Assembly (NCBI RefSeq): GCF_003334385.1
Contig: NZ_QOWN01000143.1
Length of the DNA stretch: 889 nucleotides
Origin: Escherichia coli
Lineage (GTDB): Bacteria > Pseudomonadota > Gammaproteobacteria > Enterobacterales > Enterobacteriaceae
Direction: 5' to 3' (one strand)
Every line of letters starts with the position of its first letter. Position 1 is the first letter of the stretch. Made by a program: the position numbers and the translations under genes. Below are positions 1 through 889 of this stretch, piece after piece. The notes under the pieces were generated by a model. That model ran no database searches. It worked only from the letters and a program-made list of their open reading frames with translations, and was not told where the DNA came from.

Positions 1-602
1 GACGACCACAGCGTTCTGTTCTGCAGTTGGTCCGTGGTGCTGTCCGCCGTCTCCCTGACCATCCGGATGTTAAAGGGGCGGGGAGGCAGATTATCCAGAA
101 TCACCGAGGCCAGGAACTGTGAGGTGGTCTTGCCGTTAATGGTGACATCCTTTTCTGTCACCCAGTTACCGTTACGCTGTAACTGAATCAGCAGACGGAC
201 AGAGGACGGATTACGGTCACCCTTTGACGTGGTCTCCACCAGTGACTGCACCCCGAAGGTAACCCGCAGACGGTCAATGTTCGCTGACGTGATGGTGCGC
301 GTCACCGGCTTTGCCTTCGTCACCTCCACGCCCAGTGCGGTTTCCGCCCCGGAGGACTCAAAGCCTTCCGGCGGTGTCTGCTCCTGCTCCCCGGCACGCC
401 AGACGGCGGTCACACCGTGTATCACGGGATTACCGTCCGTGTCCGTCAGCGGGGTTTTGTTCACCAGAATACTCTGCAGTCCCTTCACCGGGCCTTCTAT
501 CGGTCCCTCACCAATCGCATCAATCACACTCATCATCTGCGTGGATTTGAGATTATCCTTCGCCTCGCGCGGTGTGTGCGCCCTGCCGCCGCCTTTGCCC
601 AT
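1..602 (-). CDS. J: Host specificity protein J / tail tip central fibre protein, N-terminal 200 codons; start codon at 602..600, ORF continues beyond the left edge of the window
   Basis: Reverse complement of 1-602 is an uninterrupted reading frame: ATG at 602..600, then 200 sense codons with no stop (MGKGGGRAHTPREAKDNLKSTQMMSVIDAIGEGPIEGPVKGLQSILVNKTPLTDTDGNPVIHGVTAVWRAGEQEQTPPEGFESSGAETALGVEVTKAKPVTRTITSANIDRLRVTFGVQSLVETTSKGDRNPSSVRLLIQLQRNGNWVTEKDVTINGKTTSQFLASVILDNLPPRPFNIRMVRETADSTTDQLQNRTLWSS...). From memory this aligns colinearly with the N-terminus of phage lambda J (MGKGSSKGHTPREAKDNLKSTQLLSVIDAISEGPIEGPVDGL...TPPEGFESSG...TRTITSANIDRLRFTFGVQALVETTSKGDRNP...NLPPRPFNIRM...DSTTDQLQN.TLWSS) at high but not complete identity. 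A strong Shine-Dalgarno sits 7 nt upstream. No database search was run. Confidence 0.9.
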   Translation of the reverse strand, partial: MGKGGGRAHTPREAKDNLKSTQMMSVIDAIGEGPIEGPVKGLQSILVNKTPLTDTDGNPVIHGVTAVWRAGEQEQTPPEGFESSGAETALGVEVTKAKPVTRTITSANIDRLRVTFGVQSLVETTSKGDRNPSSVRLLIQLQRNGNWVTEKDVTINGKTTSQFLASVILDNLPPRPFNIRMVRETADSTTDQLQNRTLWS

Positions 603-606
603 TACA

Positions 607-615
607 TCACCTCTT
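607..615 (-). promoter_or_regulatory. Ribosome binding site (Shine-Dalgarno) of J
   Basis: Minus-strand sequence upstream of the ATG reads ggtAAGAGGTGAtgtaATG; the GAGG core (613..610) lies 7 nt from the start codon at 602. Confidence 0.65.
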
Positions 616-635
616 ACCGTGATAATTGTTCACTC

Positions 636-668
636 ACAAAAACAACAGGCACCCCGGAGGATGCCTGT
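636..668 (-). terminator. Rho-independent terminator-like hairpin on the tail-operon strand, about 35 nt upstream of the J start
   Basis: Minus-strand RNA: ACAGGCA-U-CC-[UCCG]-GG-G-UGCCUGU followed by UGUUUUUGUG. The 7 bp GC-rich stem (668..662 paired with 651..645) extends to about 10 bp via one U.G wobble and two C-G pairs around a 4-nt loop. On the plus strand the same hairpin is followed by ATCATGACTG (no U tract), so it is orientation-specific. Pairing was checked by hand only, not with a folding program. Confidence 0.55.
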
Positions 669-675
669 ATCATGA

Positions 676-711
676 CTGAATAAAAATTCTGAATATCTTC
701 ACATTTTCACA
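676..711. repeat. Short tandem direct repeats: CTGAATA x2 (676-682, 689-695) and TTCACA x2 (698-703, 706-711)
   Basis: Read directly from the sequence: gaCTGAATAaaaattCTGAATAtcTTCACAttTTCACAaa. The repeat periods are 13 and 8 bp. Function unknown; they overlap the candidate promoter and a CRP-like site. Confidence 0.5.
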
Positions 712-733
712 AACTGACTGTGGCGCTGATAAT
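706..733 (+). promoter_or_regulatory. Candidate sigma70 promoter firing antisense to the tail operon
   Basis: TTCACA (706-711; 5/6 to TTGACA), a 16 bp spacer, then GATAAT (728-733; 5/6 to TATAAT). Predicted transcription start near 740. It sits in the AT-rich spacer and a plus-strand terminator lies about 60-100 nt downstream. Hexamer matching only, no experimental support. Confidence 0.3.
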
Positions 734-739
734 TTCGCT

Positions 740-837
740 GCGTTAATTTTTTTTGTCGTGACATAAGAATAATTCCTTACACTTAATCTTCGTAACTCTC
801 CCGCAGTTCCTGTCCGCGATCACTGCGGGATTTTTTT
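740..837 (+). ncRNA. Candidate small antisense RNA of about 95-100 nt (hypothetical), from the predicted start near 740 to the plus-strand terminator
   Basis: No plus-strand ORF exists here: there is no ATG between 673 and 845, and GTG/TTG starts hit stops within 1-8 codons. The interval is bounded by a promoter-like element upstream and a strong intrinsic terminator downstream. I do not recognise it as a known sRNA family. Confidence 0.2.
799..837 (+). terminator. Rho-independent terminator on the plus strand (antisense to the tail genes)
   Basis: Perfect inverted repeat TCCCGCAGT (799-807) / ACTGCGGGA (822-830) gives a 9 bp stem with 6 G-C pairs around a 14-nt loop, followed immediately by TTTTTTT (831-837) and then ATTCTTTTT. 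On the minus strand the hairpin is preceded by an A-run and followed by GAGTTACGAAG, so it would not terminate tail-operon transcription. The loop is longer than typical. Confidence 0.6.
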
Positions 838-844
838 ATTCTTT

Positions 845-889
845 TTACCCCTGCCGCCCGATAACCACGACCTTTCCGCCCCCGCCTTC
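845..889 (-). CDS. C-terminal end (14 codons plus stop) of a probable tail assembly protein I homologue; gene enters from beyond the right edge
   Basis: Reverse complement of 845-889 translates as EGGGGKVVVIGRQG followed by TAA (stop at 847..845). From memory lambda I ends ...DEGDGGQVVVIGR, so the Gly-run plus VVVIGR motif matches, and I lies directly upstream of J in lambda. The fragment is very short, and the other two minus frames are also open across this edge, so the call rests on motif and synteny. Confidence 0.5.
   Translation of the reverse strand, partial: EGGGGKVVVIGRQG

Follow-up and report, generated by a model that had tools for sequence, protein, structure and literature searches.

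We propose that the spacer between the tail genes I and J carries an intrinsic (Rho-independent) terminator inside the operon, and we consider it likely that this element stops unmodified RNA polymerase and is read through by Q-modified polymerase. The element is a G+C-rich hairpin followed by a U-tract at positions 636–668 of the window, by which we mean the whole 889-nucleotide stretch of Escherichia coli DNA that was analysed, and it lies on the minus strand, in the direction of the tail operon. The features of the window are the following, each with the evidence for it.

1–602, minus strand: 5' part of gene J (host-specificity or central tail fibre protein); J annotation in Escherichia phage PhiR5_1 and in E. 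coli prophages
603–635, minus strand: J leader with the Shine-Dalgarno sequence AAGAGGUGA (615–607) and no promoter-like site; reading of the sequence and promoter scan
636–644, minus strand: U-tract UGUUUUUGU, directly 3' of the stem; sequence, with a U-run in 14 of 14 hairpin variants
645–668, minus strand: predicted terminator hairpin with a 10-bp stem (one G·U) and a UCCG tetraloop; pattern scan, folding and stem pairing in relatives (97.9% of stem cells)
669–705, no strand assigned: A+T-rich block running from the hairpin to the PasB -35, highly conserved across spacer variants; spacer comparison
706–733, plus strand: predicted PasB promoter TTCACA-16-GATAAT, directed away from J; scan (10 of 12 matches)
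740–837, plus strand: PasB-family sRNA gene, antisense to the tail operon; homology, probe match, promoter and terminator
799–837, plus strand: PasB terminator, a 9-bp stem (799–830) with T7 (831–837); scan and folding
845–889, minus strand: 3' end of gene I (tail assembly protein), TAA stop at 847–845; annotation in relatives

The hairpin and its U-tract

Many Stx1- and Stx2-converting phages contain near-identical DNA, as do prophages in 1748 of the 5426 complete E. coli genomes. Annotation of these copies names the flanking genes I and J, and the spacer itself (603–844, 242 bp) bears no annotation in the near-identical phage and prophage records. PhiR5_1 is 98.5% identical to the window across the spacer, and the N-terminus of J in the window shares 78% identity with J of HK629 (Lambdavirus). 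Homologues of J occur in 1659 phage records.

On the minus strand, positions 668–645 read ACAGGCAUCC-UCCG-GGGUGCCUGU, which gives ten pairs, six of them G-C and one G·U, around a four-nucleotide loop. Three features expected of an intrinsic terminator occur here together, namely a G+C-rich stem-loop, a U-rich tract within 0–2 nt of it and a fold that is favoured over the alternatives. The U-tract is broken by G residues, and its tail score of 4.06 is on a par with those of the other terminators scored. A d'Aubenton-Carafa-type score of +30, obtained with modern energy parameters in place of the original ones, falls in the range of textbook terminators. The pattern scan called four terminator-like sites in the window, where 1.0 ± 1.1 were expected, the stem of this hairpin being the longest. 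On the plus strand the palindrome is followed by no T-run, and the signal is therefore one-directional, serving the operon direction only.

The sequence-only reading had placed a GC-rich hairpin with a 3' U-tract at this very site on the tail-operon strand, about 35 nt before the J start; the coordinates and strand were correct, and since the J start codon (ATG) is at 602–600 on the minus strand, the end of the U-tract (636) lies 33 nt upstream of it. That reading also left no place for a dedicated J promoter between the hairpin and the ribosome binding site, and the scan agrees, finding no promoter-like site on the minus strand there. Folding, one of the checks that the sequence-only reading had named, came out in its favour: the 46-nt hairpin segment folds at -20.6 kcal/mol, whereas its shuffled versions average -10.4 ± 2.6 and 0 of 200 reach the same stability (z = -3.9). 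The 24-mer of the hairpin alone folds at -18.2 kcal/mol, and the hairpin is retained when a 211-nt context is folded, in the minimum free energy structure as well as in the centroid.

The same 211-nt context shows, in both structures, a small hairpin that can form in the J leader at 603–626 on the minus strand (UAUCAC ... GUGAUG), with most of the Shine-Dalgarno sequence held in its 8-nt loop.

The PasB gene on the opposite strand

The opposite strand of the spacer carries a small RNA gene which the sequence-only reading had missed. RIL-seq in EPEC E2348/69 identified PasB as an Hfq-dependent sRNA of 83 nt (Pearl Mizrahi et al. 2021, PMC8550237). According to Table S6 and the annotation file of that paper, its gene in prophage PP6 is flanked by E2348C_1436 (I) and E2348C_1437 (J) and lies on the strand opposite to them. 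The sRNA is also treated in a preprint by Zhu, Shabalina and Storz (2026). The PasB northern probe (AATCCCGCAGTGATCGCGGAGCT) matches the window at 20 of its 23 bases, at about 812–831, and the two loci align throughout. Counted from the -10, the 5' end of the RNA falls at about 740, and by homology to the 83-nt E2348/69 RNA at about 754; the -10 itself is TATAAT in E2348/69 and in the L007-type spacer described below. PasB is absent from Rfam. A match to the MicX family, obtained by searching Rfam with both strands at E ≤ 10, covered 636–837 on the plus strand and scored 21 bits, where the gathering score is 75; it joins two generic hairpins and was dismissed as chance.

Among the first 33 rows of Table S2 of Tree et al. 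(2014, PMC4104026), EcOnc22, EcOnc23 and EcOnc24 of EHEC Sakai are RNAs of about 85 nt that are destabilised without Hfq. The probe shared by these three maps to the PasB-homologous segment of the I–J spacer of Sakai Sp15 (about 843–927 of locus L211), and on these rows and on sequence comparison EcOnc22/23/24 and PasB appear to belong to one sRNA family that shares its I–J position; Table S6 of PMC8550237 gives no EHEC homologue for PasB. Taken at face value on NC_002695.2, the EcOnc22 CRAC peak in those rows would sit on the hairpin, an artefact of a version shift of about +140 nt that we measured at AgvB1. The Sakai coordinates of Tree et al. (2014) refer to NC_002695.1 and are displaced by about +140 nt relative to NC_002695.2 at 1.94 Mb. 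Sy et al. (2020) also mapped to NC_002695.1, presumably with the same shift, and old sRNA tables can mislead when used on the current record. The anti-sRNAs AgvB and AsxR were considered and set aside, as they locate to the moron site at PR' and not to the tail operon.

By eye, a CRP-like half-palindrome (TCTGA-N6-TCACA, 688–703) is present in the conserved block just upstream of the PasB -35, with its centre about 44 bp before the predicted PasB start, which is a non-canonical spacing. Levels of PasB are reportedly higher in LB than in DMEM, and this would fit activation by cAMP-CRP through the candidate site.

The presence of PasB makes the I–J spacer a moron site that carries a known sRNA. 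The sequence-only reading had offered, as an alternative, that the hairpin might be the 3' end of a moron transcript. That part of its interpretation fell, because the moron in this spacer is PasB, which is transcribed on the opposite strand from its own promoter (706–733) to its own terminator (799–837), and the hairpin lies outside it, on the minus strand and upstream of the PasB promoter. The part that stood comprises a terminator signal on the operon strand, no J promoter, and Q in PhiR5_1.

The hairpin could instead be the 3' end of a separate sRNA on the operon strand, either a transcript of about 85 nt started divergently at the PasB -10 or a product cut from the 3' UTR of I. The region 5' of the hairpin is conserved and A/U-rich, the hairpin with its U tail resembles an Hfq-binding module, and the PasB -10 is near-palindromic, reading AATTAT on the minus strand at 734–729. 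However, the scan accepts no minus-strand site as promoter-like, and the sole candidate -35 (ACGACA) is poor and set at a 19-nt spacing. Published Hfq data point the same way: the whole of RIL-seq table S5 for EPEC E2348/69, an uninduced lysogen, has PasB as its only I–J spacer RNA, and within the first 33 rows of the EHEC Hfq-CRAC Table S2, again from uninduced cells, the only spacer peak (EcOnc22–24) falls on the PasB homologue after the shift of about +140 nt. HK97-like phages, T1-like phages and lambda, the last with a weaker hairpin, moreover have a signal at this place without PasB, and we regard an operon-strand sRNA as very unlikely.

Conservation and turnover at the I–J junction

Our comparison covered 190 related spacer copies taken from viral contigs, with the conserved block that adjoins the hairpin as the anchor. 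The hairpin itself was present in 105 of the 190, in 14 sequence variants, across which 97.9% of the stem cells are paired. Stem pair 7 is U-A, U·G or C-G among these variants, the loop is UCCG, UCAG, CACG or CGGUGA, and one rare variant (L070 type) has a C·A mismatch in the stem. The U-run is constant while at least four unrelated J leaders and ribosome binding sites come after it, with ATG or GTG starts; a comparison of related phages, which the sequence-only reading had suggested, thus found the paired hairpin with its U-tract kept in front of unrelated sequences. A formal covariation test was not significant, only one pair having changed on both sides and 106 of 500 shuffles equalling the result; the spacer sequences are close relatives, too closely related for this test to decide, and for that reason we rely on the turnover of signals at this position across phages.

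The commonest alternative, the L007-type spacer (at least 69 copies), keeps the PasB module and has exchanged the hairpin for another operon-strand hairpin, CCCCGGUAUC-UGCU-GAUACCGGGG followed by UUUCUCUUU. This hairpin was not called by the stricter terminator scan, and the L007-type spacer gave chance-level matches only in Rfam. Within L007 (about 1000–1200), the sequence beyond ...GAATTTTTAT is a replacement of some 180 bp that includes the palindrome CCCCGGTATC-TGCT-GATACCGGGG, flanked by A- and T-runs. In the L051 type, represented by two loci, exactly that palindrome has been lost between short direct repeats.

These comparisons bear on the idea that the hairpin belongs to the PasB moron, either terminating PasB or acting at the DNA level, as a palindrome for protein binding or as a recombination boundary, with no role as RNA. 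The PasB -35 is 38 bp downstream of it, most copies have it together with the PasB module, and mosaic junctions directly flank it on both sides. PasB nevertheless runs away from the hairpin and stops at its own terminator (799–837), the palindrome has no T-run on the plus strand, and the base changes in the stem preserve pairing and not a fixed DNA motif. That the L007 type keeps the PasB module and swaps the hairpin points to selection for an RNA signal and not for a sequence. A role confined to the PasB moron is, in our estimation, highly improbable.

The L034-type spacer (L034, 300–1200) has, directly upstream of J, a promoter-less PasB remnant and then an antisense sodC, which encodes a Cu,Zn superoxide dismutase (NF007628, E = 5e-66) and has its own terminator. 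No operon-strand terminator was found before J in these sodC-carrying spacers, which means that the I–J terminator is not essential; it is favoured but dispensable.

Other phages have different signals at the same junction. The I–J spacer of HK542 (HK97-like) contains GCCACC-UCCG-GGUGGC with U7, that of Serratia phage Niamh GCCCC...GGGGC with U7, and those of the T1-like phages JMPW2 and Rogue1 contain AACCCGCC...GCGGGUU with U-runs. Lambda, HK629 and Evi share AAACCGCC-UGCG-GGCGGUUU followed by UGUCAUUU, unrelated in sequence to the hairpin of the window. We term it weaker because, in lambda, it was missed both by the terminator pattern scan and by the whole-genome scan, the latter of which extends stems greedily. 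Relatives in Providencia, Vibrio and Klebsiella have no I–J spacer at all. Unrelated hairpins that replace one another at a single position support a function for these putative signals.

In JMPW2 (L214, 297–373) and Rogue1 (L215, 291–370) the terminator is followed, within 10 nt or less, by an extended -10-like element seen by eye (TGTATAAT or TGTAGAAT), which suggests that J probably has its own promoter and forms a separate transcription unit in these virulent phages. Elsewhere in the lambdoid late operons, terminator-like hairpins on the operon strand follow E, J and lom, respectively, in PhiR5_1 (L213; 32904–32924, 44893–44912 and 45645–45674) and in lambda (L212; 7163–7180, 18920–18935 and 19612–19633). 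Hairpins in the intergenic gaps of PhiR5_1 are what an antiterminated operon would be expected to look like. When the I–J hairpin is added, J is bracketed by terminator-like signals.

The hairpin might act mainly on RNA stability or processing. After an endonucleolytic cut it would block 3' exonucleases, shield the H-M-L-K-I message and set the amounts of upstream tail mRNA and J mRNA, with little useful termination. The stem is stable (-18 to -21 kcal/mol) and persists in context, similar hairpins follow the major capsid gene E in lambda and PhiR5_1, plausibly in a protective role, and a Q-modified polymerase, from what is established for lambda Q, would disregard the hairpin as a terminator. 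The strictly kept U-run speaks otherwise, being needed for termination and not for exonuclease blocking, and the equivalent T1-like hairpin, together with its promoter-like element, marks a true transcription-unit boundary. We think stability fairly unlikely to be the main role. It is compatible with a terminator and not exclusive of it, and transcripts that end or are trimmed at the hairpin would likely gain a stable 3' hairpin as a secondary effect.

Probable read-through into J and comparison with known systems

A consensus scan revealed no sigma-70-like promoter on the minus strand anywhere in the window, the interval from the hairpin to J included. In PhiR5_1, Q is encoded at 17469–17849 and the late genes follow the order Nu1...H-M-L-K-I-J-lom; both are seen in that phage, the window being too short for either. 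Lambda Q renders RNA polymerase terminator-resistant along the whole late operon. With no J promoter, and with Q in the near-identical PhiR5_1, read-through by Q-modified polymerase is the natural route to J expression, and J, having no promoter of its own, would be made from the long late transcript.

For the intra-operon terminator that we favour, the course of events may be pictured as follows. When polymerase lacking the Q modification, from stray or divergent initiation in a lysogen, reaches the spacer, the hairpin would form on the U-tract and the RNA would be released some 33–40 nt before the J start. Termination at this point would silence J together with lom and the tail fibre genes that follow it. 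During lytic growth, Q-modified polymerase coming from PR' would be terminator-resistant and would pass the hairpin. Both termination and read-through in vivo are what we infer, the latter from established lambda biology. In keeping with this picture, the I and J transcripts are near background in the E2348/69 lysogen (base means of 4.8 and 15). A point against it is that a lysogen has little operon-strand transcription to stop, which makes the selective benefit of a terminator less obvious.

Perhaps the terminator before J is a selected checkpoint in many lambda-like and T1-like siphophages, gating J and the genes behind it as a separate unit, and in prophages with PasB would also stop divergent transcription from the PasB -10; the product would be an RNA from the operon strand, about 85 nt long and with a 3' end of the Hfq type. 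We hold this broader proposal to be quite unlikely. If it were true, the gated genes would be the receptor-binding gene, lom, the tail fibres and conversion genes, and the RNA of about 85 nt could be a partner or sponge in the PasB network.

An intra-operon I–J terminator would give the tail operon of Stx-type and related prophages one more control signal, so far unannotated, and would explain a J gene without a promoter. It also presents the I–J junction as a recurrent transcription boundary and as an insertion site for extra genes (PasB and the virulence-linked sodC). Removal of the spacer would delete the terminator before J as well, and neighbouring signals should consequently be kept or controlled for when PasB or EcOnc22–24 are deleted or cloned. 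The general view of lambdoid late transcription is unchanged by it.

Terminators within lambdoid late operons that are overridden by Q are textbook knowledge. The t'J sites downstream of lambda J are reportedly due to Luk and Szybalski, and lambda tR' is likewise said to be read through under Q. The element in the window resembles tR' and t'J in being a G+C-rich hairpin with a U-run, intergenic, on the late-operon strand, with no promoter after it and in a Q-encoding lineage; it differs in its position, which is between I and J and not after Q or J. In the records and literature searched we found no description or annotation of an I–J terminator in lambda or in Stx phages, and no usable map of lambda 3' ends. 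PasB and EcOnc22–24 are already published; what we did not find described is the I–J terminator and its recurrence at this junction across lambda-like, HK97-like and T1-like phages.

As with the PasB and EcOnc22–24 loci, the window has a homologous PasB gene in the same I–J spacer, whereas the hairpin under study lies ahead of the PasB promoter, on the other strand. With the T1-like phages JMPW2 and Rogue1 it shares a strong hairpin and T-run at the same gene junction and, unlike them, it has no promoter-like site after the terminator. The I–J junction behaves like an insertion site for the morons of lambdoid phages (Juhala et al. 2000, as cited within PMC4104026 and PMC2629481): PasB, or PasB and sodC, is inserted there with its own signals, a short way upstream of the receptor-binding gene, and the 'ant moron' that lies 5' of the P22 tailspike gene is a similar case. 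In contrast to a moron's own terminator, the hairpin belongs to the operon strand, and HK97-like phages, T1-like phages and lambda have hairpins at this junction without a moron.
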